Shown here: positions 1-22,456 of the stretch, piece by piece
How positions within the stretch are numbered: the first letter of the stretch is position 1
Layout of the letters: each line of letters begins with the position of its first letter
Assembly (NCBI GenBank): GCA_964022095.1
Contig: CAXHZO010000001.1
Coordinates: 288,001-352,000 of the forward strand
DNA: 64,000 nt
Source of the DNA: an uncultured Arcobacteraceae bacterium
GTDB taxonomy: Bacteria; Campylobacterota; Campylobacteria; Campylobacterales; Arcobacteraceae
Direction: 5' to 3'
Program-made: the position numbers and the translations under genes
Notes under the pieces: generated by a model
The model's database searches: none
Told to the model about the DNA's origin: nothing
What the model saw: only the letters and a program-made list of their open reading frames with translations

Positions 1-338
1 TTTAATCCTGCATCTTTTAATTTTGTAATAATTCCTTCAGGAGCACCAACTCCTGAAGTAATTAAATTTGTATAAAAACCAAGTTCACTTGCACGTGCTA
101 CAATTTCAACTATATCTTTATTTAATAAAGGCTCACCACCAGAGATTCCTAGCTGAACAGCACCAAGTTCTCTAACTTGTTCCATTACTCTAAACCAATC
201 TTCTTTTGTCATGCCATCTTTTGTTTCAGCAAAATCTAGTTGATTATAACAGTAAGTACACTCTAAAGGACATTTATGTGTTAATTCAAGTAATACCCAT
301 AATGGTGGTTTAATCTCTATTTTTTCATTAGTCGACAT
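1..338 (-). CDS. pqqE: PqqA peptide cyclase, radical SAM (5' part only, runs off window)
   Basis: Manual translation from ATG at 338: [33 protein letters not shown]..., with CxxxCxxC and later SGGEPL; directly follows pqqD. Not in ORF track. Confidence 0.95.
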   Translation of the reverse strand, partial: MSTNEKIEIKPPLWVLLELTHKCPLECTYCYNQLDFAETKDGMTKEDWFRVMEQVRELGAVQLGISGGEPLLNKDIVEIVARASELGFYTNLITSGVGAPEGIITKLKDAGL

Positions 339-612
339 AATTTACCCACTTTCTTTCAAATGCTTCAGCAAAAAAAGATTCTACGTCTTTTTCTAATCCA
401 GACATATCAAATTTTTTTTCTAATGTTTCTACAATTTGATTAAAATTTTTTGTTCCATCACATTGATTCATAATTTCACCAGCACTTTGGTTTAATTGAA
501 CCATACCTTCAGGATATAACAACACAAAACAATCTTGCGCTTTTTCAAATTGCAGTTGAAAGTGATTATTCACTACAATTAATTTTTCTTTGTGCATTTT
601 CTGCCCCTTCAA
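328..612 (-). CDS. pqqD: PqqA-binding chaperone PqqD
   Basis: [18 protein letters not shown] motif; position between pqqC and pqqE; true start may be the second Met. Confidence 0.93.
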
Positions 613-1312
613 TATTGAAGTATGGAGGTTGTTTTAACTCGTATGCTAAATACAACGCATCACACATTGTCCAAAGTATATCAAGTTTAAACTGTAAAAT
701 CTCACAAGCTTTCTCTTGAAGTTCAACTGTATTAAACTCTTCTAAAGTAATTGATAATCCATGTTGAACATCTCTTCTTGCTTCACTTAATCTTTTTTGG
801 AAGTATCTTAAACCTTCTGGTTTTATCCATGGATAATTATCAGGCCAAGTACTTAATCTTTGTTGATGAATTTGAGGTGCAAACATCTCAGTTAAAGATG
901 ACATTGCAGCTTCTTTCCACGGTCTTTGTTTTGCAAAGTTTATATAAGCATCAACTGCGAATTTAACTGCTGGTAAAACATATTTATGAGAAACCAAGTC
1001 CTCTTTATTTAAACCTACTGCTTCACCTAATTCAAGCCATGCTTCAATTCCTCCACCCTCACTATCATGATCAATAATTCTATCTAACCATTTTCTTCTA
1101 TCTTCTAATGGGGGGTTATTTGACATAATAGCTGCATCTTTAATAGGAATTGCAGTTTGATAATAAAATCTATTTGCAACCCATCCTTGAATTTCCTCTT
1201 TTGTACATTCTCCTTTGTACATTCTAACGTGAAAAGGATGATGGATGTGATACATTGCACCCATACCTCTTAATTTTGCTTCGAACTCTTCTTTGTTTAA
1301 TAATTCGCTCAT
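566..1312 (-). CDS. pqqC: Pyrroloquinoline-quinone synthase
   Basis: [46 protein letters not shown] motifs. Confidence 0.97.
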
Positions 1313-1326
1313 TACTTCTCCTACTA

Positions 1327-2244
1327 CTAAATTTCGATACTCATACCGTCATAAGATACTTCTATTCCGTGAGATATCAATTCTTTATATTCATCATTAC
1401 TTTCATCTAAAATTGGATTAGTATTATTTATATGTATTAAGATTTTTCTAGGTTTTTCTAATGTATCTAATATTTTAATCAAGCCCTCATCACCGCTTAA
1501 TGGAATATGTCCCATATCAGTTCCAAGTTTATTTGAAAACTTCCCTTTAATCATTTCATCATTTGTCCAAAGAGTACCTTCAATTAATAATACATCTGCA
1601 TTTCTCATTTCTTCAAATACGTGATCTTCCATAACTCCAAGACCTGGTAGATAAAATAGTCTTTTTCCAGTTTTTTTATTTACTACTGTTATTCCTATAT
1701 TATCACCTTTTCTTGGCTTATCTCTATGGGCTGAATATGGTGGTGCATTTGAAATTAACGCATGTGCATAAAATTCATAACTAGGCATTACTGGAATTTC
1801 AAACTTTGTAGTTGAATCTGGAAGTATTTCATGCCAATTAGTTCCTCCACCATCCCAATGTTTTAACATTTTCATAGTAGGGAATGATGTATTTAATTCT
1901 TCATTTACTTCTTTTGTACAGTAAATTTCATGTGGGCAACCTTCTCTTAACATTAAAAGTCCAGTTGTATGATCAATTTGAGCATCATTAAAAACGATAG
2001 CTTTTATTTTAGTTTCTCTTTTTTTTGTTGGATGTAAAAAAGGTGAGTTATGAATTTGTTCTAAAATATCTGGTGATGTGTTAAATAAAACCCAGTTTTC
2101 ACCATCTTCACTAATTGTAATAGAACTTTGAGTTCTTCTTTTTATTGTAGATTTACCTTCTCTGTAACCTCTACAGTTATCACAGTTACAGTTAAATTGG
2201 GGAAGACCTCCACCAGCTCCTGAACCTAAAACTTGAATTTTCAT
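1327..2244 (-). CDS. pqqB: PQQ biosynthesis protein PqqB
   Basis: [48 protein letters not shown] motifs. Confidence 0.97.
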
Positions 2245-2260
2245 ACAAACCTTTCATCTA

Positions 2261-2306
2261 TTTTTCATAATTGAACTCATATTAACATAAACTCAATTAT
2301 AAAAAA
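2261..2306 (-). other. Long RNA stem-loop in the pqqA-pqqB intergenic region
   Basis: The 46 nt fold back on themselves on the minus-strand transcript; every non-Watson-Crick position is a G-U pair. Confidence 0.6.
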
Positions 2307-2339
2307 GAGGCAAGTTAGAAAAATTTCTAACTTACCTCT
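2301..2339 (-). terminator. Intrinsic terminator/stabilising hairpin after pqqA1
   Basis: AGAGGUAAGUUAGAAA/UUUCUAACUUGCCUCU stem followed by U-tract on the minus strand. Confidence 0.75.
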
Positions 2340-2356
2340 AACCAAAAATACTTCTC

Positions 2357-2431
2357 TTAGTTATGACAAATGTACATTGTCACTTCAAAACCAAATCTGT
2401 TATCTACGAACATAGGTGTTTCCCATTTCAT
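2357..2431 (-). CDS. pqqA: PQQ precursor peptide, copy 1 (MKWETPMFVDNRFGFEVTMYICHN)
   Basis: 24 aa with RxGFEVTMY (ExxxY) core; AAGGAGG RBS; upstream of pqqB. Not in ORF track. Confidence 0.97.
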   Translation of the reverse strand: MKWETPMFVDNRFGFEVTMYICHN

Positions 2432-2467
2432 GATCAGTACCTCCTTTGTAAGATTTTAGTATTTAAA

Positions 2468-4231
2468 TTACTTATGTAATTTAAATACGTGAACTGTCCC
2501 ACCTTGGTTGATGTTTTTAACAAGTTTTGCAACTTCACCACCCCATAATGGAACAGCACCACCCCAACCAGAAACGATTGCGATATATTGCTCACCATTT
2601 TGAGTCCATGTTACAGGAGATGAAACAATTCCTGAACCAACATTAAAGCTATATAATGTTTCACCAGACTCGTCATCTAATGCTAAGAATTTACCTTCAG
2701 GAGTACCGAAGAATACTAAACCACCAGCAGTAGTTAAAACTCCACCCCATAATGGTGCAGGGTTTTTATAATTCCATTTAATATCACCAGTTAATGGATC
2801 AATTGCTTTTAATGAACCAATATGGTCATCAAAAATTGGTTTAATTGTAAATCCAGCACCTAAGTAAGCAGCACCTTTTTTATAAGAAATTGGTTGATTC
2901 CAAATATCCATACCCCACTCATTTGATGGAACATAGAAGTTACCAGTTTTTTGAGAGTATGCCATTGGCATCCAGTTTTTACCACCTAAGAACGAAGGAA
3001 CAGACCATACTGATTTACCTTTAGACTCAGAACCAGGATTACCAGGTCTTCCATCTTTAGTATATAAAGGTCTTCCATCTTTTCCAATTCCAGTTGCCCA
3101 AGTAATATTTGAAACAAATGGATTAGCAGTAATGAAGTCACCATTAGTTCTATCTAATACATAGAAGAAACCATTTCTATCTGCAGTTGCAGCATATTTT
3201 TTACCATCTTTGTTGAAAGAAATTAACTCATTAACACCATCAAAATCCCATCCATCATGTGGAGTTGTTTGGAAATGCCATACAATTTTACCAGTATCAG
3301 GATCAATAGCTAATCTTGAAGAAGAGTATAAGTTATCACCTGGTCTTGTGTGTGAATTCCAAGGTGCAGGGTTACCAGTACCAAAGAATAAAAGGTCTGT
3401 TTCTGGATCATAAGTACCACCTAACCATGTAGCAGCACCACCAGTTTTCCACATATCACCTGGCCATGTTTTACCAGCTTCACCACCAGTAATTCCATTT
3501 TCTTTACCATTTAAGTAACCCATGTGACCTTCAACAGTTGGTCTATTCCAAACTACTTCACCAGTTTTAGCATTTCTTGCTTCAACTTTACCAACGATAC
3601 CAAATTCACCACCAGCAACACCAGTGATTACCATATCTTTTACGATAATTGGAGCAGCAGTAATTGAGTAACCGTCTTTATATTTTGCAATTCTTTTTTT
3701 CCATACAACTTTACCAGTTTTTCTATCTAAAGCAACTAGTTTAGCATCTAATGTACCGAAAATAAATAAGTTTTCGTATAATGCTCCACCTCTGTTGATA
3801 ACATCACAACAAGGTAAAATTGCGCTTGGTAATTTTGCATCATATTGCCATAATTCTTCACCAGTAGCAATATCAATTGCATACGCTCTTGAATAAGAAC
3901 CAGTTACATACATAACTCCATCTTTAATTAATGGTTGTGACTCTTGTCCTCTTTGTTTTTCCCCACCAAATGAGAAGTTCCATACAGGTACTAAATTTTT
4001 AACAGTCTCTTTATTAACTTGTGTTAATTGTGAGTATCTTTGTCCTTGTAATCCCATACCGTTAGATAATACATCCTCAGTAGATTTTACATCATTTAAT
4101 ACATCGTTACTTGTTACAGTTGCAAAACCTGGCTTAGTAACTTTTTGTACATTAGTATCAGCAACACATCCTGTGATTAACGCAGCTAATGAAACAGCGA
4201 TAGCACTCTTTAATAGTACTTTTTTACTCAT
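2468..4231 (-). CDS. pedH: PQQ-dependent alcohol dehydrogenase, predicted lanthanide-dependent (PedH/ExaF type), putative lipoprotein
   Basis: [21 protein letters not shown] vicinal Cys, GGEFG, active-site [13 protein letters not shown] (extra Asp), [11 protein letters not shown]-terminal LITGC lipobox. Confidence 0.9.
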
Positions 4232-4255
4232 AGTCTCTCCTTAATTTATGTTATA

Positions 4256-4272
4256 ACAAATTGGGAATTTGT
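4256..4272. promoter_or_regulatory. Candidate operator ACAAATT-GGG-AATTTGT in the pedH leader
   Basis: Perfect 7-bp dyad between the -10 box and the RBS; 14-bp reverse-complement copy at 6802-6815. Confidence 0.4.
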
Positions 4273-4281
4273 CTTATCAAA

Positions 4282-4314
4282 AGTATACATGAGAAACATA
4301 GCATAAGTTTAGCT
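4282..4314 (-). promoter_or_regulatory. pedH promoter with regulon motif
   Basis: AGCTAAA-CTTAT-GCTATG-N9-TATACT on the minus strand. Confidence 0.7.
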
Positions 4315-5091
4315 ATTGTTAACTTTTTTAGATTTAAACCCTAAAAAGGCCATAACTAAAGTTATTACTAATGAAATAAATAAGACAAAAAGTGCCTGAT
4401 TATCGACTTTTAAATACAATGCAAACCTAATTGACTCTACTATATATGTAAAAGGATTATATGAAGAAATTTCATATAAAAGTATTGAAGAGTCTTTAAT
4501 TTTCCATAATGGGTACAGTGCTGAGCTTAAAAAGAACATTGGAAAAATAACGAAATTCATTACTGTAGCAAAGTTCTCAAGTTGTTTAATAACTGATGAA
4601 ATAAATAATGCAAAGGCATTTAATATAATTGAAGAGACTATAATTACAGGTATTGTTACTAATATAGCAATAAAACTAATATCAACTCCATAAGCTTTTG
4701 CTATTAATAAAAATGTTACTGCTTGAATAGTTGATACTATTGAAGTAGCAAACATCTTACAAAATAGTAAATAATTTCTATTTATATATGATGATAAAAG
4801 AATCTTCATACTTCCCATCTCTCTATCAAATATCATTGTAAGTGAACTTTGCATACCATTAAATAGTAACACCATCCCTACTAAACCTGGAACTATATAT
4901 GTCTCATATGTAATATATGTTTCATATGGAGGAGTAATTGCTAGTCCAAGTGCAGTTTTAAAACCAACAGAGAAAATAAACAACCATAACAGAGGTCTAA
5001 CAAGTGCTGAAAAAAATCTACTTTTTTGTTTTACAAATCGAATTAACTCTTTATAGATAATTCCCTTCATACAATTAATATATATATTCAT
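4309..5091 (-). CDS. ABC-2 type permease of PQQ-ADH system (PedC/LutF-like)
   Basis: SRFFSALVRPLLWLFIF, LLFNGMQSSL..IFDREMGSMK, LENFATVMNFVIFPMFFLSSALYPLW. Confidence 0.88.
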   Translation of the reverse strand: MNIYINCMKGIIYKELIRFVKQKSRFFSALVRPLLWLFIFSVGFKTALGLAITPPYETYITYETYIVPGLVGMVLLFNGMQSSLTMIFDREMGSMKILLSSYINRNYLLFCKMFATSIVSTIQAVTFLLIAKAYGVDISFIAILVTIPVIIVSSIILNAFALFISSVIKQLENFATVMNFVIFPMFFLSSALYPLWKIKDSSILLYEISSYNPFTYIVESIRFALYLKVDNQALFVLFISLVITLVMAFLGFKSKKVNNS

Positions 5092-5094
5092 GCT

Positions 5095-5826
5095 TTACCT
5101 TACTAAATGGTTGAATGTATCAACTAAATTTTCTTTTTCATATTTGTTAACAATATCTTTTACAATTCCTGACTCTACAATATCACCTGCTTTTATAAAT
5201 GATATATTATCAACTTCTTTTACCTCATCAAATAGATGCGTAATCCAAAGTACACTTACATTTTCTCTTTTAACTAAATCTCTAACATAATCTAATATAT
5301 CAAATCTACTTTTTAAATCTAATCCTACAGTAGGTTCGTCCAACAATAAAAGTTTTGGTTTGTTAATAAGAGCTCTTAAGATTTCAACTCTTCTTCTATG
5401 GCCACCATTTAGTTTTCTTGCTGTTTTATCTAAAACATCTTCAAGCTCTAATCTTTTTATTTCATCTTTTATCGATTCAATAGTTTCTTTAAACCCTAAG
5501 CCTTTAATAGCACCATAGTAGTATAGATTTTGTCTAACTGTTAAATCTAAATCTAATGTTGGTTCTTGAAATACAATCCCAATATCTTTTAATGATTTTG
5601 AATAATTCTCTATTGAGTGTTGATTTATATTAATCTCACCTACTTCTAATTTTAGTAGCCTAGTGATTAATGAGAAAATTGTTGATTTTCCTGCACCATT
5701 TAATCCAAGTAATACAGAAAAGCTTCCCTCATTTATATGAAAGGATATTTTATTTAATACTTTTTTACTACCATATGAAAATTCTACGTCTTTTAGTTCT
5801 AATATTTTTTTACACATTTTTACCAC
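5095..5826 (-). CDS. ABC ATP-binding protein of PQQ-ADH system (PedB/LutE-like)
   Basis: Walker A GLNGAGKS, GIVFQEPTLDLDLTVRQNL, LNGGHRRRVEI, LLDEPTVGLD. Confidence 0.88.
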   Translation of the reverse strand: MVKMCKKILELKDVEFSYGSKKVLNKISFHINEGSFSVLLGLNGAGKSTIFSLITRLLKLEVGEININQHSIENYSKSLKDIGIVFQEPTLDLDLTVRQNLYYYGAIKGLGFKETIESIKDEIKRLELEDVLDKTARKLNGGHRRRVEILRALINKPKLLLLDEPTVGLDLKSRFDILDYVRDLVKRENVSVLWITHLFDEVKEVDNISFIKAGDIVESGIVKDIVNKYEKENLVDTFNHLVR

Positions 5827-5850
5827 AATCTATTTTAAATTTTAATATTG

Positions 5851-5883
5851 ATTATATGACATCTTTATAGCATACATTTAGCA
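5851..5883 (-). promoter_or_regulatory. ABC ATPase/permease promoter with regulon motif
   Basis: TGCTAAA-TGTAT-GCTATA-N9-TATAAT on the minus strand. Confidence 0.75.
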
Positions 5884-5893
5884 AAAATCTATT

Positions 5894-5931
5894 AAAAAAA
5901 TACATAACTTGAAAAGTTTCAAGCTATGTAT
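5894..5931 (-). terminator. Intrinsic terminator after pqqA2
   Basis: AUACAUAGCUUGAAA/UUUCAAGUUAUGUAU stem with a G-U pair, followed by a U-tract. Confidence 0.75.
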
Positions 5932-5959
5932 CATAAAACCAAAGAAGGTCAGTTATTTA

Positions 5960-6034
5960 TTATTCATTACAAATATACATTGTAACTTCAAAACCAAATC
6001 TATTATCAACGAACATCGGTGTTTCCCATTTCAT
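5960..6034 (-). CDS. pqqA: PQQ precursor peptide, copy 2 (MKWETPMFVDNRFGFEVTMYICNE)
   Basis: 24 aa, 22 identical to copy 1 with several synonymous differences; AAGGAGG RBS. Not in ORF track. Confidence 0.96.
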   Translation of the reverse strand: MKWETPMFVDNRFGFEVTMYICNE

Positions 6035-6057
6035 TTCAATTACCTCCTTTTTAAAGT

Positions 6058-6759
6058 TTACCAATCAGTTGGACAATCTTTACAACCATCCATATATACT
6101 CCACTTAAGTTTGCATAATGGATTCTTGTTCCTGTAAAAATTGCCTTATGTAAAGACGCACTAGATAATTTAGTTTCTTGTAAATTCGCATTAGTAAAAT
6201 TTGAATTTTCAAAATTTATTCTTGTCATCCATGCCGCTTCTAAATTTACTGCTTGTAAATTACAATTTTTCATACTAGAGCCACTCATTCTTGCAAACTC
6301 AAGATTAGCACCATGAAAAGATGAATTATCAAATGTACTACCTTGTGCAAATAAAGCCCATGCATTTACTCCATCAAAATTACTATTTGATGCTTTTGCA
6401 ACCTTAATATTTGCATGTCTTAAATCTGCTCTTGCTAAATTTGCTCCTTCAAAATTTGAATTACTCATATCTGAATTCTTTAAAATTGCATGTCTTAACT
6501 TTGCATTTTTAAAATTTGACTTTCTCAATATTGATTTTGTCAAATTTACTCCATCAAGAATTGCTCCTTCAAAGTTAGCCCCTTCGAAATTAGACTCTTT
6601 TAAATCTAACCCCGAAAGATTTTGCTTACTTAAATCTACATTTTGACAACTTGTTTTTGGTACTAGCTTACATCCATTAATTATTCTTATTTCGTCATCT
6701 TCATATGCATGAATTAAACTCATAAAAATAATTAAAATAACTATAACTTTTTTCATCAT
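6058..6759 (-). CDS. Exported pentapeptide-repeat protein (PedD-like)
   Basis: Signal peptide, long A(N/D)L/Fxx repeats, Cys pairs at both ends (GCKLVPKTSC, GCKDCPTDW); adjacent to the ADH gene. Confidence 0.85.
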   Translation of the reverse strand: MMKKVIVILIIFMSLIHAYEDDEIRIINGCKLVPKTSCQNVDLSKQNLSGLDLKESNFEGANFEGAILDGVNLTKSILRKSNFKNAKLRHAILKNSDMSNSNFEGANLARADLRHANIKVAKASNSNFDGVNAWALFAQGSTFDNSSFHGANLEFARMSGSSMKNCNLQAVNLEAAWMTRINFENSNFTNANLQETKLSSASLHKAIFTGTRIHYANLSGVYMDGCKDCPTDW

Positions 6760-6823
6760 GTGCCTTTTGAGTATTATTTAACTTCTAATTTTATATACTT
6801 TAAATTCCCAATTTGCGTATAAA

Positions 6824-8710
6824 TTATCTTTTAAGTTTAAATACCCAGAAAGAACCACCTTGAGATACAGGTTTAGTTAATTCAGCCATGTCTCCACCCC
6901 ATAAAGGTACAGCTCCACCGTAACCACTTGCAAGTCCTATATATTGTTCACCATCTTCTTCCCAAGTAATTGGACAAGAAATAATTCCAGAACCAGTTTG
7001 GAACTTCCATAACTCTTTACCAGTTTTTGCATCAAATGCTTTAACATAACCATCACCAGTACCTGTAAATACAAGGCCACCTTTAGTAGTTAATACTCCA
7101 GCCCATAATGGTAATTTTTCTTTATGTGACCATACAATTTCGCCTTTTACTGGATCAACTGCTCTTAAAATACCTACATGATCATCATAAGTTCTCTTAA
7201 TTCTAAATCCTTGACCTAAATACGCTGCACCTTTTTTGTACTCAATAGGTTGAGTCCAATAATCTTCTTCCCAATGGTTTGCACCAAGATAGAATAATTT
7301 TGTATCTTCATTATATGCCATTGGGTTCCAGTTCTTACCACCTAAGAATGGTGGAGCAACCTTGATAGCTTTTCCTCTTGTTTTCCCCTCTTCAGGTAAT
7401 GGTGGGTATTGTTTTGGATCAACAACTGGTCTACCTGTTTTTGGGTCAATATGACTTGCCCATGTAATCTTATCAACAAATGGGAAAGCTTTAATAAATC
7501 TTCTTGCTTGATCTTCTCTTTGCTTATCAGCTTTTTTCATAGTTTCTCTATTAATTACATAGAAGAATCCATTTCTATCTGCATGTCCAGTAGCTTTAAT
7601 TGTTTTACCATTTTCTACATAATCAAATAGTACTAATTCATTATTACCTGAGAAATCCCATGCATCATTTGGTGTATGTTGGTAGAACCATTTAATATCA
7701 CCAGTAGTTGGGTCAACTGAAATTTGTCCTGATGTATATAAACTATCCCAATCTCTTGGATCTCCACCATCAGCAGTTCTTTCCCAAGTATTCCATGGTG
7801 CTGGATTTCCAGTACCTATAATAATTGAGTTTGTTTCATAATCATAACTAGCACTTTGCCATGGTGCACCACCACCGTGACTCCAAGCTGTTTTTTTACC
7901 AGTAGGATTATTTTTATCATCTGGCCAAGTTGGAGCTTTAGGATCTCCTGTTGGAGTTGATTTTTTACCATTTAATCTACCATAGTGACCTTCAACCATA
8001 GGTCTCATCCAGATCTCTTTACCTGTATCTGGATCTAATGCAAATAATTTACCTATAACACCGAATTCATCACCTGATGAACCATGGATTAACATTACTT
8101 TTCCAGTTTTTTTATCTTTTACAATAGTTGGAGCACCAGTCATAGTATAACCGTCTTGATACCCTTTATTTGGTCTATCTGCATATCCAAATCTTTTTTT
8201 CCAGATCACTTTTCCTGTATCTTTATTTAATGCAACAATACCAGCATCTAAAGTACCAAAGAATACTTTATCTCCAAATATAGCTGCACCTCTGTTAATT
8301 ACATCACAACAAGGTTTAATATCTGAAGGTAATCTATGCTCATATTCCCATATTTTTTTACCACTTTTTGAATCAAGTGCAAATAATCTTGAATATGATC
8401 CAGTTACATATATTTTTCCATCATGAACTAAAGCTTGAGACTCTTGTCCTCTTTGTTTCTCTCCTCCAAATGAAAACGTCCAAGCTGGTACTAAATCTTT
8501 AATAGTTTTAGTATTTATCTCATCAAGTTTTGAGTATCTTTTTGCTTCTGGTCCCATACCATACATTAATACATCTTCAGTTGTATTTTTATCATTTAAG
8601 ATATCGTCCCATGATACTTTTTTTGTTTCAGTACTTGCAACACTAGATTGAAGTCCTAATAAACCAACAAAAGTCATAACAGCTGCTTTTTGTAACAAAT
8701 GATTTCTCAT
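6824..8710 (-). CDS. exaA: PQQ-dependent ethanol dehydrogenase, predicted calcium-dependent (PedE/ExaA type)
   Basis: [32 protein letters not shown] (Ser in place of the extra Asp), FLGGKNWNPM. Confidence 0.92.
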   Translation of the reverse strand: MRNHLLQKAAVMTFVGLLGLQSSVASTETKKVSWDDILNDKNTTEDVLMYGMGPEAKRYSKLDEINTKTIKDLVPAWTFSFGGEKQRGQESQALVHDGKIYVTGSYSRLFALDSKSGKKIWEYEHRLPSDIKPCCDVINRGAAIFGDKVFFGTLDAGIVALNKDTGKVIWKKRFGYADRPNKGYQDGYTMTGAPTIVKDKKTGKVMLIHGSSGDEFGVIGKLFALDPDTGKEIWMRPMVEGHYGRLNGKKSTPTGDPKAPTWPDDKNNPTGKKTAWSHGGGAPWQSASYDYETNSIIIGTGNPAPWNTWERTADGGDPRDWDSLYTSGQISVDPTTGDIKWFYQHTPNDAWDFSGNNELVLFDYVENGKTIKATGHADRNGFFYVINRETMKKADKQREDQARRFIKAFPFVDKITWASHIDPKTGRPVVDPKQYPPLPEEGKTRGKAIKVAPPFLGGKNWNPMAYNEDTKLFYLGANHWEEDYWTQPIEYKKGAAYLGQGFRIKRTYDDHVGILRAVDPVKGEIVWSHKEKLPLWAGVLTTKGGLVFTGTGDGYVKAFDAKTGKELWKFQTGSGIISCPITWEEDGEQYIGLASGYGGAVPLWGGDMAELTKPVSQGGSFWVFKLKR

Positions 8711-8780
8711 TTTCTCTCCTTAATAAAATTTATTTCAAATAAATACAATTAATATGTAACTATTTTAAAACAATTGTTAA

Positions 8781-8813
8781 ATTATACATTTTAATTATAG
8801 CCTTAGTTTAGCA
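8781..8813 (-). promoter_or_regulatory. exaA/pedE promoter with regulon motif
   Basis: TGCTAAA-CTAAG-GCTATA-N9-TATAAT on the minus strand. Confidence 0.75.
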
Positions 8814-10019: not shown

Positions 10020-10024
10020 TAGTA

Positions 10025-13201: not shown

Positions 13202-13263
13202 AAAAAATCCTTTATTTTCTTTACTTCTTAATGAAACTTTAGCTAAAATACAAACTTAAGACA

Positions 13264-13288: not shown

Positions 13289-13326
13289 ATATAAAAAGAT
13301 ACCTATGTGATTTTAAGGGGTTTACA

Positions 13327-13668: not shown

Positions 13669-13694
13669 TATAGCTTAATTAATTTTGGCTATTG

Positions 13695-13814
13695 TTATAT
13701 TAAAATCAATAGAACGATAGCTAAAATAAAACCAAACTCATACTTAAACATACTTTTCATATCATCTGATGTAATTGATTCACTATAGTGTGCGTCATAT
13801 GATGTAATATTCAT
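13695..13814 (-). CDS. Small putative membrane protein, 39 aa
   Basis: AAGGA RBS; MNITSYDAHYSESITSDDMKSMFKYEFGFILAIVLLILI with hydrophobic C-terminus. Not in ORF track. Confidence 0.55.
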   Translation of the reverse strand: MNITSYDAHYSESITSDDMKSMFKYEFGFILAIVLLILI

Positions 13815-13972
13815 AATTAGTTCCTTATAGTTATATTTTATTACTATACACAATAACATATATAACTTATTTTATTCTTAAGAAATCTATAGTAATTTAC
13901 TTATATTTTAATAAAAAACCTCCTAACTGTATATATACTGTACAATTAAGAGAATATTACAACCTTTTTTTA

Positions 13973-16481
13973 CTACTCTCTAAATTTTTTTTCACCAACA
14001 TCTTCTAATATTTGTTTAGCAAGTTTATTTGAATTAGCTGCTATATCATGAGTTTGTGAAGCAATTTCTGCATTTTCTTGAGTTTGCTTATCTAAGCTAT
14101 AAACTGCACTATTAATTTGCTCTATTCCAGATAATTGCTCTTTACTTGATTTATCAACAAAATCAATTAAATGTAAAGTCTCTTCAATATTGTTATTAAG
14201 TTTTTTATATCCTTCAATCATTTCAGAAGCAATACCTTTACCTTCATTTGCTTTGAAGCTTGCATCTTCAACTAATTTTTTTATCTCATCAGCTGCTTGG
14301 GCACTTCTACTTGCTAAGTTTCTAACTTCTTGAGCAACAACAGCAAATCCTTTTCCAGCTTCACCTGCAGTTGCTGCTTCAACGGCTGCATTAAGAGATA
14401 AAATATTTGTTTGAAATGCAATTTGATCAATCACTTCAATTGCTTCACTAATAGCAGTTACTTTTTCGTTTATTTCATCCATAGAAGAGTTTGTTTTATT
14501 AGCTAATACTTCCCCACTTGTAGAAGACTCATTTACTTTTTTAGAATAGTTAGTCATTTTATAAATATTCTCTGAACTATTTCTAATATTTGATGTAATC
14601 TCTTCAATTGATGAAGATGTCTCCTCTAAAGATGCTGCTGCTTGAGTAGAACTAAGCTTTAATTTATTTACATTGTCAAGTAAAGTATCTGATTGTCTAT
14701 CAATAGTTAATCCTCTTTGTTTACTTTTATTTAGCATTGTAGAGATTGAATCACCTAAATAATTTACTCCTTGTGCTAAATTTAATAAATCTTCTTTTAA
14801 TCCATTTGTATCTACTTTTTCTAAATAATCATAATTTGAATATTTATCTAAAATATTTAAAACCTTATTTATATTAGATTCTAAATTCCCTGCCATATTA
14901 TTAAGTACATCTTGTAATTGCATTAAAGAAGGATTAGATACATTTTGATTTAATCTTTTTGACAAATAACCCTTTTCAAAATCACCTAACACTGCTATTG
15001 TTTCATCAATTAGTTTTCTATCTTCATCTATTGATTTTTTAGTAATTTGAACATTCTCATTTAAAATACTTGCCATTTGACCTATTTCATCATCATTAAC
15101 AACTTCTAATAATACAGCATCATCTGATTTATGATTTAAATATGAAAAGAAAGAGTCTAATCCATCTTTTAATTTTTCAATTGGATTTATTATTAGTTTG
15201 CTTATTAAACTAATAGAGATAATCAAAAATATTGTGATACTTACAATTGAAGCAATTAATACAAATCTTCTAAGCTCATATGCTGTTTGAAAAGCTTCAT
15301 CTTCATCAATTTCAGACACTAATACCCATTTTGTTTGATCAAAAATATTTATTACCTCAAAAGCACTTAATACACTAATCCCTCTATAATCATCAATTAT
15401 CCAATTAGCTTCATTTATATTTTTTTCAAAGGCTGCTTTTGTTGTATCTGTTTTTACTTCCCAAATACCAATAGTTGAATTTAACTCTTTTACAATGTCA
15501 TCATTTATGTCATTTAAAAATCTAGAGTTGTTTCTCATTTTATAATCACTACCAATTAAATAAGCCTCACCACTTTTTCCAAAACCTGATTCTTCATAAT
15601 CTCCATTAAAACTCATAATGTCATTGATTTTATCAACTGGCATTTGAAAAATTAAAACACCTTGTTTCTTATCATTTATAAAGATAGGTGTTGCAATAAA
15701 GGAAGCAGCTGAATTATAACTAGGCTCATAGGGAGCAAAATCTTCAAAAGCAATTTCATTTTTATTTAACTGTAATGCTTTTTTATAAACTTTTCCAATA
15801 CCTGTTTTTGAATATACACCATTAATTAAATTTGTACCAAAATCTTTTTCTTTGAAGTCTGTGTAAATTAAGTTACCCTTTAAATCTACCATGAAAATAT
15901 CATATAAACTATAATTAATTAAGAATTCATTGAAAGTGCTATGGTATAACTTATGTGCCTCCATATATTTAGACTTATATTTTTCATTATAAACTAAATT
16001 GTTTTTTTCTCCCAATTTTTCTTTATTATCAGTAATAAAAATATATTGAGCAATTAAAGAGTTATTATTAATTGGAAGATAGGTATCCATATCTTTTCTT
16101 GAATCACTATTTGGGACTTTATAATTTACCAAATCTAAATAGTTTGTCTTAAAATCTTTTGAAATTTCTTCTTCAATAAAATCAATATCTAAATCAATTT
16201 CATTAGATAAATTATGAAAACCTTCTTCAAAATCTACAAAAGCATCTTTTGTAGTTTTACTTTGAGATAAAGATAAAAGAAGTGATTGTAATGTTCCAAA
16301 ATAAGATTGAATTTCATTCTTTTTAGTAGTTTTGATAGCTTGTAGCTTATTCATTTCTGATTTTTCTAAAGATTTCATTGACATATCTATAGATAGATAT
16401 GAGATAATAGAACCTAGAAAAATCAAACTAAATGCGATTAAAGTAATTAACTTAAATCTAATTGATAAGTTTTTTTTTCAT
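13973..16481 (-). CDS. Methyl-accepting chemotaxis protein (Cache-like sensor), frameshifted at A9 tract directly after the ATG
   Basis: [30 protein letters not shown] signalling motif; ATG at 16481 with RBS is one base out of frame with the long ORF. Confidence 0.85.
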
Positions 16482-16552
16482 TTATCAGCCCTTTATAAAA
16501 TAATCTATAATTGTACTGTAAATTAATAAATGTATAAATAAATAAGAAAAAA

Positions 16553-16951
16553 CTAGTACTTACCAAACTCTTTATATGTTTTATCTTCAAAAATTATAAA
16601 GACTGTTTTTGGATCATTATCATTCTCATAAGCAGGTAATGCTAAACCAATTGAGTCCTTAATTGGTTTTGCTAAAAAATCTTTTATAGCTTTTGAAGGA
16701 ACATTACCTTCAAATACATAATCATTTAAAAAAGAGGTATTACATGATTGTATTTCAAAAGGAACACCAACATCTTTTTTTATTGCTTTTACGCTTCTTA
16801 AAGTTATGATCTCTACATCTTTTGCAACTAAATTCATCTCTTCATACCAAGAAGGAGGACAAGTACTACTTAGAGGTTTAAAAACTTGCATTTTCCCTTC
16901 ACTTGCAAACAATGCAACTACTAAACTAGCTAAAATAAATATTTTTTTCAT
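16553..16951 (-). CDS. Exported DUF411-like protein, degenerate metal ligands
   Basis: KKDVGVPFEIQSCNTS...YVFEGNVP...IGLALP matches the DUF411 pattern (SCHT, EGHVP, GLAVP). Confidence 0.65.
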   Translation of the reverse strand: MKKIFILASLVVALFASEGKMQVFKPLSSTCPPSWYEEMNLVAKDVEIITLRSVKAIKKDVGVPFEIQSCNTSFLNDYVFEGNVPSKAIKDFLAKPIKDSIGLALPAYENDNDPKTVFIIFEDKTYKEFGKY

Positions 16952-17661
16952 ATTTCACCTTTTAATATATTTGGATATTCATCAAAAAGATTGTTTTTAA
17001 TCTCATCAATTCTTTTTAAATCAAAACTTTGTTCATTTGGGTTGTTAAACTCTAAAATTACCTTTGCAGGATTTTTTGAAAAGAAGAATATTCTATTTGA
17101 AAATAAAATAGCCTCACTTATATCATGAGTTACAAGAATAACTATTGGATTGAATTTTTTGCAAAGTTCTAAAAAGTCTTTTTTAAGCTCTTGAGAAGTT
17201 GGAAAATCTAAAGAAGTAAAAGGCTCATCAAGTAAAATTAATTTCGGTTGATTTATAAATGCTCTTACAAATGCAACTCTTCTTTTCATGCCCCCTGATA
17301 ATACTTTTGGATATTCATCTAAAAAATCTTCTAAATCGATTAATCTTAGTAATTCTATTATATCTTCAATACTTTTTGATTGAGAAACTAATAAAAGATT
17401 CTCTTTAATTGTTAGCCAAGGAACTAATCTATCATCTTGAAAAACAAAAGAAATCTCATCAAAAGGTATATCAATATGTCCACAATAGTCATTATCTAAG
17501 TTTGATAAAATATTTAAAAAAGTACTTTTACCACACCCTGATGGACCAATTATTGATATAAATTCATTCTCTTTTACATTCATATTTATATCTTTTAATA
17601 TGGTTTTAGTGTTGTATTCTTTTGAGCTTATATTTATATCAATCATACTATTTCCATGCAT
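16948..17661 (-). CDS. NitT/TauT-family ABC ATP-binding protein
   Basis: GPSGCGKST, FVFQDDRLVPW, LSGGMKRRV, LLDEPF. Confidence 0.88.
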   Translation of the reverse strand: MHGNSMIDINISSKEYNTKTILKDINMNVKENEFISIIGPSGCGKSTFLNILSNLDNDYCGHIDIPFDEISFVFQDDRLVPWLTIKENLLLVSQSKSIEDIIELLRLIDLEDFLDEYPKVLSGGMKRRVAFVRAFINQPKLILLDEPFTSLDFPTSQELKKDFLELCKKFNPIVILVTHDISEAILFSNRIFFFSKNPAKVILEFNNPNEQSFDLKRIDEIKNNLFDEYPNILKGEI

Positions 17662-18379
17662 TTATTTTATTTTCTATTGGCTTTAATATATAGTTCTCAA
17701 TTAATAATATAACAATAATAAAAGCTAAAGAATAAGCTAAAATAGATGTAATATTAAAAAATTGGAAAAACATTGATATTTTAAATCCAATCCCATCACT
17801 TCTACCAAGTAACTCTACAACTAAAACAATCTTCCAAATTAAAGATAAGGATAATCTTGTTGAAGCCATTATATATGGATAGATTTGAGGTAAAAAAACT
17901 TTAAAGAAAGTTTCTTTTTTTGATACTTTATATACTTGTGCTAGTTTTAAATACTTTTGCTCAACTGCTCTAGTGCCTTCTCTAATATTAACTACAACAA
18001 TTGGTACTTTATTTAAAATAACAGCCAATAATGCTGCAAAATCTGTTAATCCAAACCAAATATAGCAAATAACAATCGTAACTAATGCAGGTATATTTAA
18101 ACTAAGAATTAATATAAAATCAAATATATCATCTACTTTTTTTGATAAACCCATTGCTATACCAATAAATATTCCAATAAGCATTGTAATAAAAAATGTT
18201 ACAAATACTCTATAAAGAGTAATTCCTAAGTGATGAAACAGTTCTCCATCCCCCATATGTCTAATTAAATCATAAAAGATATCAACAACACTTGGGAATA
18301 CTGAAGATTCTATAGTAACAGCAATAGCTTGCCAAAGTATTACAAAAATAAATATTGATATTAGTTTAGTTTGATTCAA
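17648..18379 (-). CDS. NitT/TauT-family ABC permease
   Basis: Hydrophobic; LNIPALV, REGTRA, WKIVLVVELLGRSDGIGF. Confidence 0.88.
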   Translation of the reverse strand: MNQTKLISIFIFVILWQAIAVTIESSVFPSVVDIFYDLIRHMGDGELFHHLGITLYRVFVTFFITMLIGIFIGIAMGLSKKVDDIFDFILILSLNIPALVTIVICYIWFGLTDFAALLAVILNKVPIVVVNIREGTRAVEQKYLKLAQVYKVSKKETFFKVFLPQIYPYIMASTRLSLSLIWKIVLVVELLGRSDGIGFKISMFFQFFNITSILAYSLAFIIVILLIENYILKPIENKINAWK

Positions 18380-18393
18380 AATATAATTCCCAT

Positions 18394-19350
18394 TTATTTT
18401 TCAAAGTCCCAGAAAGTTTTTGTTTGTAAATAATTACTATTTTTAACTAATTTTCTACCACCCTGCTTTAGAAGAATCTCAAATATTTTTGAAGAATCTT
18501 TAATGTTTTTCTTTGTAAAATCTTTAATTACACCTGCTTTATAACCATCTATTAATGCATTAAAAGTTTTTTCATCTTTCACGTTCATTAATGGTTTAAT
18601 TCTCTCCCACTCTTTTTTATTATTTATTAAAATATCTTTTGCTTCATGTGTAGCTTTTATAAAAGAGTTATATAATTTTTTATTTTCTAAAGCAATATCT
18701 CTTCTAAAAGTCCATCCAACAGTTGAAATATCTTCTTTTATTCCAAAAGAAGCAAATACATCTTTAATTCTTATAAATTCTTTCGCCCCTTTTGCTTTAA
18801 CTTTTGCATTAAAATGCCAAAAATTAATTGCTCCATCTAATGAGCCATCTAATACTTTTTTCATTAAAATTGGAGGAGCAGCAAAAACTGGCTTAATTAT
18901 ATTTTTCAAATCTTTACCATATTTTAACTTTGAATAAGCCCTTAAGATTAGCCATGTTTTATCAACAGGACCTCCAGCAATACCTATACTTTGTCCTTCC
19001 AAATCTAAAATAGTTTTTGCATTATTATTTTTGTTTATATACATAGTGCCATTAGCTTTTGAATAAGGATAAAAAGTAAAATCTTTACCACTCGCTCTTT
19101 GAGTATTAACCCAAATCCAATCAGTAACAAAAATATCTACACTTTTAGATTGAAAGGCAACAGAGGTGGCATTTTTTGATGCTAATTTAACAATATCTAA
19201 ATCAAAGCCATATTTTTTATCTAATTTATGATGTTTTATTACATTTAGTTCCCAATTTACAGTACCAAAGGCAAGAACTCCAACTTTTAATTTTTCACTT
19301 GCACTAAGATTCAAAATTAATAAAAAGATTAAAAAATTCACTTTTTTCAT
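18394..19350 (-). CDS. NitT/TauT-family ABC substrate-binding protein
   Basis: VGVLAFGTVNWEL, VTDWIWV, GIAGGPVDKTW, NFWHFNAK; signal peptide. Confidence 0.85.
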   Translation of the reverse strand: MKKVNFLIFLLILNLSASEKLKVGVLAFGTVNWELNVIKHHKLDKKYGFDLDIVKLASKNATSVAFQSKSVDIFVTDWIWVNTQRASGKDFTFYPYSKANGTMYINKNNNAKTILDLEGQSIGIAGGPVDKTWLILRAYSKLKYGKDLKNIIKPVFAAPPILMKKVLDGSLDGAINFWHFNAKVKAKGAKEFIRIKDVFASFGIKEDISTVGWTFRRDIALENKKLYNSFIKATHEAKDILINNKKEWERIKPLMNVKDEKTFNALIDGYKAGVIKDFTKKNIKDSSKIFEILLKQGGRKLVKNSNYLQTKTFWDFEK

Positions 19351-19500: not shown

Positions 19501-19932
19501 ATGAAAAATATTCAAAAAATTGGATTAGCTACACTATTTTCTGCAGTAGTAGCATTTGGACATGGAAGTGTTACACCTCAAGCTATTGATTTAGCTGCTG
19601 TTGAAAAAGCTGGTGTAAAATTACTTGGTGAAGAATTATTAGATGAAAATCCATATAAAACAACTGATGATAAAGTAATTGAATTTGGTAAAGTACAATA
19701 TGCTGAAAACTGTGCTAGATGTCATGGATTAGATGCTGTTTCTGGTGGAATTGCTCCTGATTTAAGATACTTAGAAGATGGTATGGATGGTGATGAATGG
19801 TTCACTGATAGATTCATGAATGGTGCAGTTAGAAACGGTAACGTTTATATGCCTCCATTTGAAGGTATCTTACCACAAGAAGCAATGTGGGCAATTAGAA
19901 CTTACGTTCAAGCTTTACCAAAAGAAGACTAA
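19501..19932 (+). CDS. pedF: Cytochrome c-550, ADH electron acceptor (PedF/ExaB)
   Basis: HGSVTPQAID, ENPY, NCARCHGL heme motif, SGGIAPDLRYL, VYMPPFEG. Confidence 0.92.
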   Translation: MKNIQKIGLATLFSAVVAFGHGSVTPQAIDLAAVEKAGVKLLGEELLDENPYKTTDDKVIEFGKVQYAENCARCHGLDAVSGGIAPDLRYLEDGMDGDEWFTDRFMNGAVRNGNVYMPPFEGILPQEAMWAIRTYVQALPKED

Positions 19933-19942
19933 AAGGTAAACA

Positions 19943-20815
19943 ATGATTAATATTTTTAAATCGTTTTTTTTAGTAATTTTATTTACACTTTTTGCACATG
20001 CAAGAAGTATAGAAGAAATCCAAGAGAGTGGAGAAGTTTATATAGCAGTATATGAAAACTTCCCTCCTTACTCTTTTACTAAAAATGGTAAATTAGTAGG
20101 TGTTGATGTAGATTTAGGTAATGAGATTGCTAAGTCCCTAAATGTTAAACCTATTTTTTATCAGACAGGTACAGATGAGACTTTGTCAGACGATTTAAGA
20201 AATAATCTTTGGAAAGGTAATCTAGTTCATAAGCACAAAGCGGACATCATGTTCAGAGTTCCTTATGACTATGATTACTTAAGATTAAAAGATGACTATA
20301 CTGGTGAATTACAAAATGAAATGGTTACTATTAAAGGACCATATCAAAGTGAAAAATGGGTTATAGCAACTCATAAAAAAATTATCCCAGAATTTAAAAA
20401 TCTTGCTATGTTTGCATATCATACAATTGGTGTAGAGTTAGACACTCTTCCTGATAATCATTTATCTGGTTTCGCAAGAGGTTTAATTAGAGAAAAAGTT
20501 AAGCACTATTTTAGATATGAAGATGCAGTAAAAGATTTTTTAGATGGAAAACTTGATGCCATTGCAGGTTTAAGATCACAACTTGAGTATTATTTAGATT
20601 ATAACAATAATAAAGATAAGTACTACATGAGTGATAGTATTCCTCAAATGAAATCACATTGGGATTTAGCAGTAGCTGTTGAAAGCCTTTATAGACCGTT
20701 AGGTTATCACATCGCTGGCCTAATTTCTAAAAAATATAATAATGGTGAAATTAAGAAAATCTTTGAAAAATATGGAGTAAATTATCTTCCTCCAATTTCT
20801 AGAACGGCTCAATAA
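19943..20815 (+). CDS. Periplasmic substrate-binding-fold protein associated with quinoproteins (PedG/MxaJ-like)
   Basis: AVYENFPPYSF, DETLSDDLRNNLWKG, ADIMFRVPYD; follows cytochrome c550. Confidence 0.8.
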   Translation: MINIFKSFFLVILFTLFAHARSIEEIQESGEVYIAVYENFPPYSFTKNGKLVGVDVDLGNEIAKSLNVKPIFYQTGTDETLSDDLRNNLWKGNLVHKHKADIMFRVPYDYDYLRLKDDYTGELQNEMVTIKGPYQSEKWVIATHKKIIPEFKNLAMFAYHTIGVELDTLPDNHLSGFARGLIREKVKHYFRYEDAVKDFLDGKLDAIAGLRSQLEYYLDYNNNKDKYYMSDSIPQMKSHWDLAVAVESLYRPLGYHIAGLISKKYNNGEIKKIFEKYGVNYLPPISRTAQ

Positions 20816-20831
20816 TAAAAAAGGAATTATC

Positions 20832-21569
20832 ATGAAACATATATTCTTCTTCATTATGGTGTTTTTAGTTAGTACCGCAAACGCTAAAAACCCAATCATA
20901 TCTCCAACATTTGACGACCTAGTAAAATCCATGATCAATGGAGAGGAATATATCTTTGATGATAAAAATATCATAATGAAAGTACCTAAGTTTGCAGATA
21001 ACCCTGTACAAGTACCCATTTATGTAAATGCAACAAAAATCAAAGATGCCCAAAGAATGATTATCTTTGCAGATTTAAACCCAATTGCAGAAATTGTTGA
21101 TATGCCAACTACAAACTTATTGCCTATTTTTTCTTCTAATATAAAAGTAGCTCAAGAAACTCCACTTAGAGCATTAATAAAAGATAGTTCTGGCCTTTGG
21201 CATGTAGGAAGTATTAATATTAATAGTAATGGTGGAGGTTGTGACATCTCTTCTCAGGCTTCACAAGATAGTAAGTTTGCAGAATTTTTAGGCCAAACAA
21301 AAGGTCAAACTTTTGATAAGAAAGATGGTGTAACAAGAATCAAAGCCTCAGTTTTTCATCCAATGGAAACAGGTTTAATTTTTGGTAATTCAAAATTTTA
21401 TGTTCATACAGTAGAAATTAAAGATGGGAATAAATTAATTGACAAAATTAAATTATCTCCTGCAATTAGTGAAAACCCTAGACTTATTTTTGAAACAAAA
21501 AGTAAATTTAAAAACTTAAATATTCTTTTCAGAGATAATGATGCAAATGAATTTGAATTAGAGTTATAA
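20832..21569 (+). CDS. Quinoprotein dehydrogenase-associated SoxYZ-like carrier
   Basis: PKFADNPVQVP, FADLNPI, GGGC swinging-arm motif, HPMETGL and ISENP SoxZ-like motifs. Confidence 0.85.
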   Translation: MKHIFFFIMVFLVSTANAKNPIISPTFDDLVKSMINGEEYIFDDKNIIMKVPKFADNPVQVPIYVNATKIKDAQRMIIFADLNPIAEIVDMPTTNLLPIFSSNIKVAQETPLRALIKDSSGLWHVGSININSNGGGCDISSQASQDSKFAEFLGQTKGQTFDKKDGVTRIKASVFHPMETGLIFGNSKFYVHTVEIKDGNKLIDKIKLSPAISENPRLIFETKSKFKNLNILFRDNDANEFELEL

Positions 21570-22456
21570 TGAAAAAGCTAATTTTACTAGTTTGTAGTCT
21601 TAGTTATTTATTTGCATATGACTTTAATTTAAAGCCTATAAAATTATCAGAAAACAGCTACTATTTTGAAGGTAAAAAAGAGTACTTTTCACCTTCAAAT
21701 GGTGGTGACATTTCAAATAGTTCATTTATAATTGCAAAGAACTCTGTAATCTTAATTGATACAGGAACTACTGTCGCTTATGCTGAAGCACTTAAAAAAG
21801 AAATAAAAAAAATCACTGATAAACCTATTAAATACATTATAAATACACATCATCACCCTGATCACTTTTTAGGTAACTATGCCTTTAAAGATGTTGAAAT
21901 TTATGCAACTGACTTTACAAAAAACGATATAGAATCTCATGGTGAACTATATGTAAGTAATATTGTAAACCTAGTAGGAGAAACTGCTTATACAACAAGA
22001 TCAAAAGCTCCAAATAAAATACTAAAAGAAGGTAAGTTATCACTAGATGGATATGATCTTGAGGTATTCTTTTTTGATGGGCATACAAAAAGTGATACTG
22101 TAATTTTAGATAAAAATACAAAAACACTTTATACTTCTGATTTAATTTTTAATCAAAGAGCCCTAGCAACTCCACATGCTAATATTCCACTATGGATAGA
22201 ATCTCTTAAAAAACTAAAAGAGTTTAATTTTGATACTTTAGTGCCAGGTCATGGGAAGGTTACACACTCAAAGAATGTAATTGATGAAAATATAAGATAT
22301 TTAGAGTTTTTAGATACTACATTAAAAGAAGCAAATTCAAATGGTTTAGATGTATTTGAAGTTCTTTTACAAGATGTTCCTAAAGAGTTTAGTGACTATT
22401 CAATGTTTCAAGAAGAGTATGAAAGAAGTATTATAAATTTATTTAAAAAATACTAA
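21569..22456 (+). CDS. Quinoprotein relay system zinc metallohydrolase (MBL fold)
   Basis: NGGDISN, THHHPDHFLGN, GHT, VPGHG. Confidence 0.85.
   Translation: MKKLILLVCSLSYLFAYDFNLKPIKLSENSYYFEGKKEYFSPSNGGDISNSSFIIAKNSVILIDTGTTVAYAEALKKEIKKITDKPIKYIINTHHHPDHFLGNYAFKDVEIYATDFTKNDIESHGELYVSNIVNLVGETAYTTRSKAPNKILKEGKLSLDGYDLEVFFFDGHTKSDTVILDKNTKTLYTSDLIFNQRALATPHANIPLWIESLKKLKEFNFDTLVPGHGKVTHSKNVIDENIRYLEFLDTTLKEANSNGLDVFEVLLQDVPKEFSDYSMFQEEYERSIINLFKKY

Follow-up and report, generated by a model that had tools for sequence, protein, structure and literature searches.

Does a member of the Arcobacteraceae, a family of the phylum Campylobacterota, carry the genes for periplasmic alcohol oxidation with pyrroloquinoline quinone (PQQ), and does one of its enzymes have the signature of a rare-earth metal? 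The question is raised by a stretch of 64,000 nucleotides from an uncultured Arcobacteraceae bacterium, called the window here (genome G000, contig C1:288001-352000), which opens with genes for PQQ synthesis, two PQQ alcohol dehydrogenases (ADH1 and ADH2) and their accessory proteins. The genome comprises 2.57 Mb in 31 contigs and is 99.99% complete. The genes at the start of the window belong to a chromosomal island of about 30 kb (C1:280575-310456). We read this island as a ped/exa-type system for periplasmic alcohol oxidation that is resident in an Arcobacteraceae chromosome, and the probability of this reading was put at about 0.75.

Genes were identified from the list of open reading frames (ORFs) and from scans with the Pfam and NCBIfam family models, and the NCBIfam scores were compared to the curated cut-offs. 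An earlier reading of the window from its letters alone (the sequence-only reading) had described positions 1-22456 as the locus. All genes that it named were present at their positions in the ORF list and in the two family scans. Its delimitation was incomplete, since 12227-19350 holds further genes and the island extends about 7.4 kb upstream past the window start.

ADH1 contains C141-C142, E209, N287, D329 and D331, with the motif W-D-F-D-G, and it aligned over the whole mature length with the solved PedH of Pseudomonas putida (6ZCW and 6ZCV, E 5e-267 and 1e-265). Residues C141-C142, E209, N287 and D329 corresponded to C131-C132, E199, N281 and D323 of 6ZCV. ADH1 thus keeps the Cys-Cys ring, the Glu, the Asn and the catalytic Asp, together with the extra Asp two residues further on (D331). 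The TIGR03075 score and the full-length 6ZCW alignment assigned it to the eight-bladed PQQ propeller fold of the methanol/ethanol dehydrogenase family, and its signal peptide is lipobox-like. ADH2 aligned with the solved ExaA of P. aeruginosa (1FLG) over residues 30-626 (E 0). It contains C134-C135, E215, N302, D352 and S354 in the motif W-D-F-S-G, and S354 occupies the place of D331 in ADH1. At this site PedE has Ser and PedH has Asp, and the Asp goes with lanthanide coordination (PMC5487730; papers given by PMC number are cited here for the excerpts available). The pairing of a lanthanide-type with a calcium-type dehydrogenase, as the sequence-only reading had proposed, therefore holds at the level of the sequence signature, on the basis of D331 versus S354, this Asp/Ser rule and the PedH and ExaA alignments.

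The cofactor genes were found next to the dehydrogenases. The two pqqA copies differ only in the last two residues. A complete pqqABCDE set had been claimed for the window; both pqqA copies and pqqB, pqqC and pqqD are indeed there, but the window edge cuts pqqE, which is complete in the genome. Its remainder lies at L002:19211-19960, where L002 is the 20 kb upstream of the window, and matches positions 124-358 of TIGR02109. PqqE was scored as two pieces over the window edge, covering model positions 3-106 and 124-358. PqqA with E-x3-Y and PqqB, PqqC, PqqD and PqqE, the set that defines a PQQ operon, are all encoded.

All four PedA1A2BC parts of an ATP-binding cassette (ABC) system are encoded beside the PQQ dehydrogenases, although the score of the ATPase was under its cut-off. 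The naming of these parts follows PMC6839425, in which PedA1A2BC was needed at nanomolar lanthanum when growth depended on PedH but not when it depended on PedE. The products over the curated cut-offs were PqqB, PqqC, PqqD, both ADHs, PedC, PedA1, PedA2, PedF and the metallohydrolase (Table 1). For the PedA1-like gene, the ATG at 10602 is a more probable start than the listed TTG, because relatives match from about residue 14-21 and stops occur earlier in other genomes.

Table 1. Island features inside the window, with model scores in bits and NCBIfam curated cut-offs.
Feature	Position in window	Strand	Evidence
pqqE, N-terminal part (radical SAM)	3-338	-	TIGR02109 match, residues 9-112; runs off the window start
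pqqD	328-612	-	NF002535, 106.8 bits (cut-off 101)
pqqC	566-1312	-	TIGR02111, 335.8 bits (cut-off 240)
pqqB	1327-2244	-	TIGR02108, 375.9 bits (cut-off 245)
pqqA copy 1	2357-2431	-	24 amino acids, E-x3-Y; ORF list and sequence
ADH1, PedH-like lanthanide-type PQQ alcohol dehydrogenase	2468-4231	-	TIGR03075, 768.8 bits (cut-off 480)
PedC-like ABC permease	4309-5091	-	TIGR03861, 346.9 bits (cut-off 241)
PedB-like ABC ATPase	5095-5826	-	TIGR03864, 279.7 bits (below cut-off 302.25)
pqqA copy 2	5960-6034	-	24 amino acids, E-x3-Y
Pentapeptide-repeat protein, signal peptide	6058-6759	-	PF00805, E 4e-62
ADH2, ExaA/PedE-like calcium-type PQQ ethanol dehydrogenase	6824-8710	-	TIGR03075, 721.9 bits
PedA2-like YVTN beta-propeller	9005-9973	-	TIGR03866, 493.2 bits (cut-off 287)
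ORF142, small exported protein	10025-10453	-	Between PedA1 and PedA2
PedA1-like periplasmic binding protein	10542-11750	+	TIGR03863, 414.0 bits (cut-off 413.6)
ORF152, small exported protein	11747-12205	+	Weak DUF302 hint only, E 0.011
YhdH/AcuI-type reductase, HxlR regulator, chemoreceptor (817 amino acids)	12227-16426		Pfam and NCBIfam scans
DUF411 protein and second ABC importer	16553-19350	-	ATPase, permease, NMT1/THI5-like binding protein; Pfam and NCBIfam
Cytochrome c550 PedF	19501-19932	+	TIGR04494, 176 bits (cut-off 122)
PedG/MoxJ-position binding protein (SBP_bac_3)	19943-20815	+	PF00497, N-terminal match only
Fused SoxYZ-like carrier	20832-21569	+	TIGR04557, 135.7 bits (just below cut-off 140)
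Quinoprotein relay system metallohydrolase 1 (SoxH-related)	21569-22456	+	TIGR04558, 337.8 bits (cut-off 300)

Several of the smaller genes in Table 1 have counterparts elsewhere. ORF142 gave no match in the Pfam and NCBIfam scans; counterparts occupy the same position in a Poseidonibacter locus (L012, 79%) and a Terasakiella locus (L015, 34%). In the protein atlas, ORF142 led only to hypothetical and copper-binding/cupredoxin entries, and no function is claimed for it. ORF152 adjoins PedA1 in the family, in six of the seven Arcobacteraceae loci. The PedG-position protein directly follows PedF in proteobacterial loci too, at 28-38% identity. A fused SoxYZ together with SoxH has been linked to PQQ dehydrogenases in other bacteria (PMC11237559).

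The host is a member of the Arcobacteraceae, which bears out its earlier placement in the Campylobacterota. SerS of the window showed 88%, 86% and 82% identity to SerS from genomes titled as Arcobacteraceae (Arcobacter sp., Poseidonibacter lekithochrous and an uncultured Aliarcobacter, respectively), compared to 50% for Pseudomonas and 47% for Halioxenophilus, two Gammaproteobacteria. The ADHs are about 70-75% identical to the Pseudomonas enzymes, far above the 50% of SerS, as would be expected if the locus were gammaproteobacterial DNA, a contaminant or part of an assembly chimera, that had been joined to a Campylobacterota sequence near 22.5 kb. We regard such an artefact as extremely improbable. 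The G+C (guanine plus cytosine) fraction is 0.25-0.35 across the island and equals that of the remainder of the window, so the AT-rich composition noted in the sequence-only reading was confirmed. Housekeeping genes flank the island on either side (upstream aroK, hisD, hemA and proS), and others occur with respiration genes in the rest of the window (rpsO, fbaA, serS, trpS, the nap cluster and nrfHA). The PedF-to-pepA stretch, followed by fbaA, is unbroken in G546 and G548. In G535, a closed genome of the same genus, the PedF-to-pepA genes all lie inside 10 kb, and the two ADHs, 90% and 95% identical to those of the window, are arranged in the same order. On composition, the conserved junction with pepA and fbaA and the closed genome, the contig was judged to be non-chimeric at 22.5 kb, and chimera or contamination was rejected.

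Away from the island, positions 43634-56985 of the window hold a block for nitrate-to-ammonium respiration, with napA, napG, napH, napF and their neighbours, nrfH and nrfA. This block also contains a protein of 1058 amino acids with a CcsB cytochrome c biogenesis domain.

The distribution of the system was examined across the phylum and the family. pqqC (TIGR02111) was present in five of 401 sampled phylum genomes, all five from the Arcobacteraceae, and in none of the 378 sampled Campylobacterota genomes outside this family. Among 184 Arcobacteraceae genomes it was found in 58, representing 10 of 22 genera. ADH1 as a query matched 57 of the 184 genomes. A close relative of ADH1 (at least 68% identity) was present in 52 genomes, and a relative of ADH2 (55-58% identical to ADH1) in nine. 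Four genomes carried both types (G000, G535, G546 and G548), 48 carried the lanthanide type only, and five carried the calcium type only. In these five, the enzyme gene is found beside the pqq genes, on the same strand as pqqC and about 2 kb upstream of it. The sequence-only reading had proposed such a search of the Campylobacterota for pqqC and both ADH clades, and it had known of no characterised example in the phylum. The latter point stands within the full-text literature covered, but the trait is less exceptional than that reading suggested, with pqqC in 58 of the 184 family genomes; about a third of Arcobacteraceae species carry the predicted trait.

Motifs were compared among 48 full-length or near-full-length ADH1 relatives and eight ADH2 relatives, plus the two enzymes of the window. 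Partial or broken ADH1 relatives from G549, G416 and G545 were left out. The lanthanide-type D-[F/Y]-D was present in all 49 sequences (W-D-F-D-G in 29 and W-D-Y-D-G in 20), and the calcium-type W-D-F-S-G in all nine. A lipobox-like signal was found in 27 of the 49 lanthanide-type sequences, including ADH1. Other family sequences have an ordinary A-x-A signal, and likewise the few proteobacterial relatives inspected. The lanthanide-type ADH gene of G545 (C15:400587-402372) is broken by an in-frame TAA and was matched as two pieces, which may reflect a pseudogene or an error in sequencing.

Gene order was compared among 13 loci, seven from the Arcobacteraceae and six proteobacterial, by searching them with 33 island proteins (tblastn). 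The six well-flanked Arcobacteraceae loci (L003, L004, L006, L010, L012 and L037) share one common order. It starts with the metallohydrolase, the SoxYZ-like carrier, the PedG-position protein, PedF, the second ABC importer and DUF411, continues with ORF152, PedA1, PedA2, PedB, PedC, the PedH-type ADH and pqqBCDE, and ends with the regulators, the ExaC-like dehydrogenase and DUF779. The window shows two additions to this order. The first consists of ADH2, the pentapeptide protein and the second pqqA, between PedA2 and PedB. The second is the insert with YhdH, HxlR and the chemoreceptor, which was unmatched in all seven Arcobacteraceae loci compared and is possibly an aldehyde-stress or chemotaxis add-on. 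The second ABC importer was present in all six well-flanked loci, and DUF411 followed it in five, being unmatched in L012. In the six proteobacterial loci compared, the importer and DUF411 were unmatched, save for weak ATPase cross-hits.

The transport genes followed the enzyme type across the family. The PedA1 binding protein was found in 49 of the 184 genomes, including 48 of the 52 with a lanthanide-type enzyme and none of the five with the calcium type only; the binding protein of the second importer was found in 51, including 50 of the 52 and again none of the five. These counts carry no statistic, the related genomes being non-independent. The four lanthanide-type genomes lacking PedA1 are drafts of 61-94% completeness, and the two lacking the second-importer binding protein are drafts of 78% and 91% completeness. 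Both binding proteins occur in G525, a draft of 85% completeness that carries a pqqC fragment. DUF411 occurred in two of the five calcium-only genomes. The PedA1 pattern fits the report that PedA1A2BC serves PedH-dependent and not PedE-dependent growth at low lanthanum (PMC6839425). The second ABC importer is a candidate partner of the lanthanide-type enzyme.

The same counts bear on whether ADH1, while bearing D-x-D, might be independent of lanthanides in this host, using calcium or another metal, with the PedA1A2BC-like transporter carrying something else. Metal use is predicted from sequence, and dissolved rare earths are scarce in seawater, both of which lend this alternative some weight. 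We consider it unlikely, however. All four metal ligands are as in the solved PedH. Of the 52 genomes with the D-x-D enzyme, 48 also have PedA1, which is absent from all five genomes with D-x-S only, and the D-x-D type is the sole PQQ alcohol dehydrogenase in 48 genomes.

The origin of the two enzymes was analyzed with two trees. A FastTree tree of 148 rows combined the family ADHs with ADHs from 80 named reference loci, and an IQ-TREE quick tree (LG+C20+F+G4) was built from a 68-row subset, with 80 rows left out. The two trees agreed. The Arcobacteraceae lanthanide-type sequences formed one clade with support of 100 in both, sister to a group of gammaproteobacterial sequences from Halioxenophilus, Aestuariibacter, Colwellia and Pseudomonas PedH (99 in FastTree and 97 in IQ-TREE). 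The nine calcium-type sequences also formed one clade (99 in both), beside Pseudomonas ExaA/PedE (100). Both trees are unrooted. As references they have only the best 80 of at least 595 relatives, and a closer donor could thus have been missed. The simpler reading would be that the gain took place in an ancestor of the Arcobacteraceae, because pqqC was present in none of the 378 sampled phylum genomes outside the family. The host-like G+C points to an old acquisition event.

Upstream of the window, the island part of L002 contains the rest of pqqE, an ORF without a family and an AraC/GyrI-like regulator. It also contains a FIST-domain histidine kinase paired with an OmpR-type regulator, an ExaC-like aldehyde dehydrogenase that scored 828 bits (cut-off 900) and a DUF779 protein, with housekeeping genes beyond. 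Between pqqE and the ExaC-like gene are the FIST kinase/OmpR-type pair and the AraC/GyrI-like regulator (L002 14776-18401). The pair is kept in Arcobacteraceae loci, with 78-87% identity for the regulator. A PedS2/PedR2-type kinase with a LuxR regulator was not found within the island, and no genome-wide search for PedS2/PedR2 was made. The FIST kinase/OmpR-type pair and the AraC/GyrI-like regulator are the likely controls of the system, replacing PedS2/PedR2. Just outside the island, ExbB/ExbD-like genes adjoin a gene for a delta-class carbonic anhydrase (L002 10728-11585; PF10563, E 4e-85).

From these components, a pathway can be proposed. PQQ would be made by the products of pqqBCDE and the two pqqA copies. 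Two exported PQQ dehydrogenases would form aldehydes by oxidizing ethanol and probably further volatile alcohols, with the PedH-like ADH1 (D-x-D) using a light lanthanide ion and the ExaA-like ADH2 (D-x-S) using calcium. Electrons would travel by way of the Cys-Cys ring to PedF, the cytochrome c550, and then to a cbb3 oxidase, for which ccoN (683.8 bits) was found in the genome. The ExaC-like dehydrogenase, dependent on nicotinamide adenine dinucleotide, would convert the aldehyde to acetate, and ackA (500.3 bits) is also present. Lanthanide would be supplied by the PedA1A2BC-like ABC system.

Several points weigh against this reading. The metal specificity of ADH1 and ADH2 is predicted from one residue and homology. 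Three components scored just below their curated cut-offs: the ATPase reached 279.7 bits where 302 are required, the SoxYZ-like carrier 135.7 where 140 are required, and the ExaC-like dehydrogenase 828 where 900 are required. An inverse lanthanide switch stays unsupported, because the island has no LuxR-type, PedR2-like regulator. In the 99.99% complete genome, neither AcsA nor isocitrate lyase scored above the cut-off, and malate synthases A and G were not found. It is therefore doubtful that ethanol can serve as the sole carbon source for growth, and energy may be the main gain from the system, with the pathway ending in acetate.

This last point leads to another view of the island, in which it is real and serves, more than growth on ethanol, as a periplasmic electron-donor and detoxification system for volatile alcohols and aldehydes, supplied for example by algae or fermenters, with the acetate excreted or partly assimilated. 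We hold this to be a serious possibility, at somewhat less than even chance. It is tempered by ackA, with which acetate could be activated, and by the other routes through which Campylobacterota can assimilate acetyl-CoA. It agrees with the lack of AcsA, isocitrate lyase and malate synthase hits in a nearly complete genome, with the encoded cbb3 oxidase, with the chemoreceptor and HxlR/YhdH module inside the island, and with the many volatile alcohols and aldehydes that P. putida PedE and PedH are reported to oxidize (PMC5487730).

RNA data count in favour of the alcohol-oxidation reading, with a reservation. Contigs of the RNA library X11 (at least 95% alike) cover 2367-4261, from pqqA through ADH1, with 5-11 differing letters per piece, and also lie over parts of ADH2, PedA2, YhdH and PedF. 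In X16, a metatranscriptome from another study (also at least 95% alike), ADH1 was recovered in three pieces, 2596-3545, 3516-3626 and 3597-4250. These contigs are compatible with expression by marine close relatives, but they prove neither transcription, strand nor level; the uncovered island parts are not evidence of silence, and contig depth cannot rank genes. Positions 2300-8800 were found in marine, seawater, aquatic and salt marsh metagenome runs (four runs compared), two of which are possibly the source itself.

Most known lanthanide-dependent enzymes come from methylotrophs and from a small number of other Proteobacteria and Verrucomicrobia. In the full-text literature searched, with subscription journals and supplements outside the scope, no PQQ dehydrogenase or lanthanide use was ascribed to Arcobacter, Arcobacteraceae, Epsilonproteobacteria or Campylobacterota, in line with the earlier impression that the system had not been characterised in this phylum. 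The available excerpts of PMC9841196, PMC2147049, PMC7284936, PMC12550815, PMC11830464 and PMC11237559 contain no such ascription to Arcobacter or Campylobacterota, and PMC7284936 ascribes PQQ dehydrogenase transcripts to Colwellia. In the A. butzleri genome paper, the text says nothing of PQQ or of ethanol.

The Arcobacteraceae are abundant in coastal water, sediments, sewage and animal-associated habitats, and a full toolkit of PQQ synthesis, a PedH-type enzyme, a cytochrome and PedA1A2BC is now seen in the chromosome of this Campylobacterota family. The main interest lies in the prediction, from homology, that Arcobacteraceae use rare earths. A bolder proposal, which we advance tentatively and would not yet favour, is that they are unrecognised and widespread rare-earth users of coastal and marine settings, the first in the Campylobacterota, with their own version of the system. 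Under this proposal, periplasmic alcohol oxidation would be strictly lanthanide-dependent in the 48 of 57 PQQ-ADH species genomes that carry the lanthanide type only. The family version would be marked by a PedH that is often lipid-anchored, by a FIST kinase standing in for PedS2 and by the second ABC importer. This importer, found only with the lanthanide-type enzyme, may have a role in lanthanide or chelator acquisition together with the DUF411 metal-binding protein. Its co-occurrence with that enzyme makes it a concrete new candidate gene set. If ADH1 functions as predicted, rare-earth use and volatile-alcohol oxidation would join the physiology of the Arcobacteraceae, and culturable strains with closed genomes would allow lanthanide sensing and uptake to be studied without PedS2/PedR2. 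The surprise is moderate, because standard family models already name the genes, all assignments are homology-based, and a third of the family's species carry them.

The island was finally compared with three known systems. Methylorubrum extorquens ExaF/lut is alike in its D-x-D ethanol dehydrogenase, with Methylorubrum homologues at 68-69% identity, and in an ABC system homologous to PedA1A2BC (PMC6839425). It differs in that no TonB-dependent receptor or lanmodulin was recognised in the Arcobacteraceae island, neither having been sought genome-wide. The exa system of P. aeruginosa (ExaA, the c550 ExaB, ExaC and pqqABCDE) is matched by ADH2, which resembles ExaA (1FLG), by the c550 and by the ExaC-like dehydrogenase. 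The characterised enzyme of P. aeruginosa is the calcium type, whereas the Arcobacteraceae have this type less often than the other, in nine of 184 genomes against 52 with the lanthanide type.

The third system is the ped cluster of P. putida KT2440. It shares with the island the calcium- and lanthanide-type pair with the Ser/Asp difference, a c550, the complete PedA1A2BC set, a pentapeptide protein next to the calcium enzyme, pqq genes and an aldehyde dehydrogenase (PedI in ped) (PMC5487730, PMC6839425). The match to ped/exa clusters that the sequence-only reading had recognised was thus supported by the PedH and ExaA alignments, PedA1A2BC, PedF, the pentapeptide protein, the pqq genes and the ExaC-like dehydrogenase. 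The differences from ped are the phylum of the host, the FIST kinase with OmpR-type and AraC/GyrI regulators instead of a PedS2/PedR2-type pair, the lipobox-like signal of ADH1, and the extra second ABC importer and DUF411, which were unseen in the six proteobacterial loci compared. As predicted from its genes, the system is of the ped/exa type already known, and its family-specific traits are the lipobox-like signal in 27 of 49 sequences, the FIST kinase and the co-varying importer.

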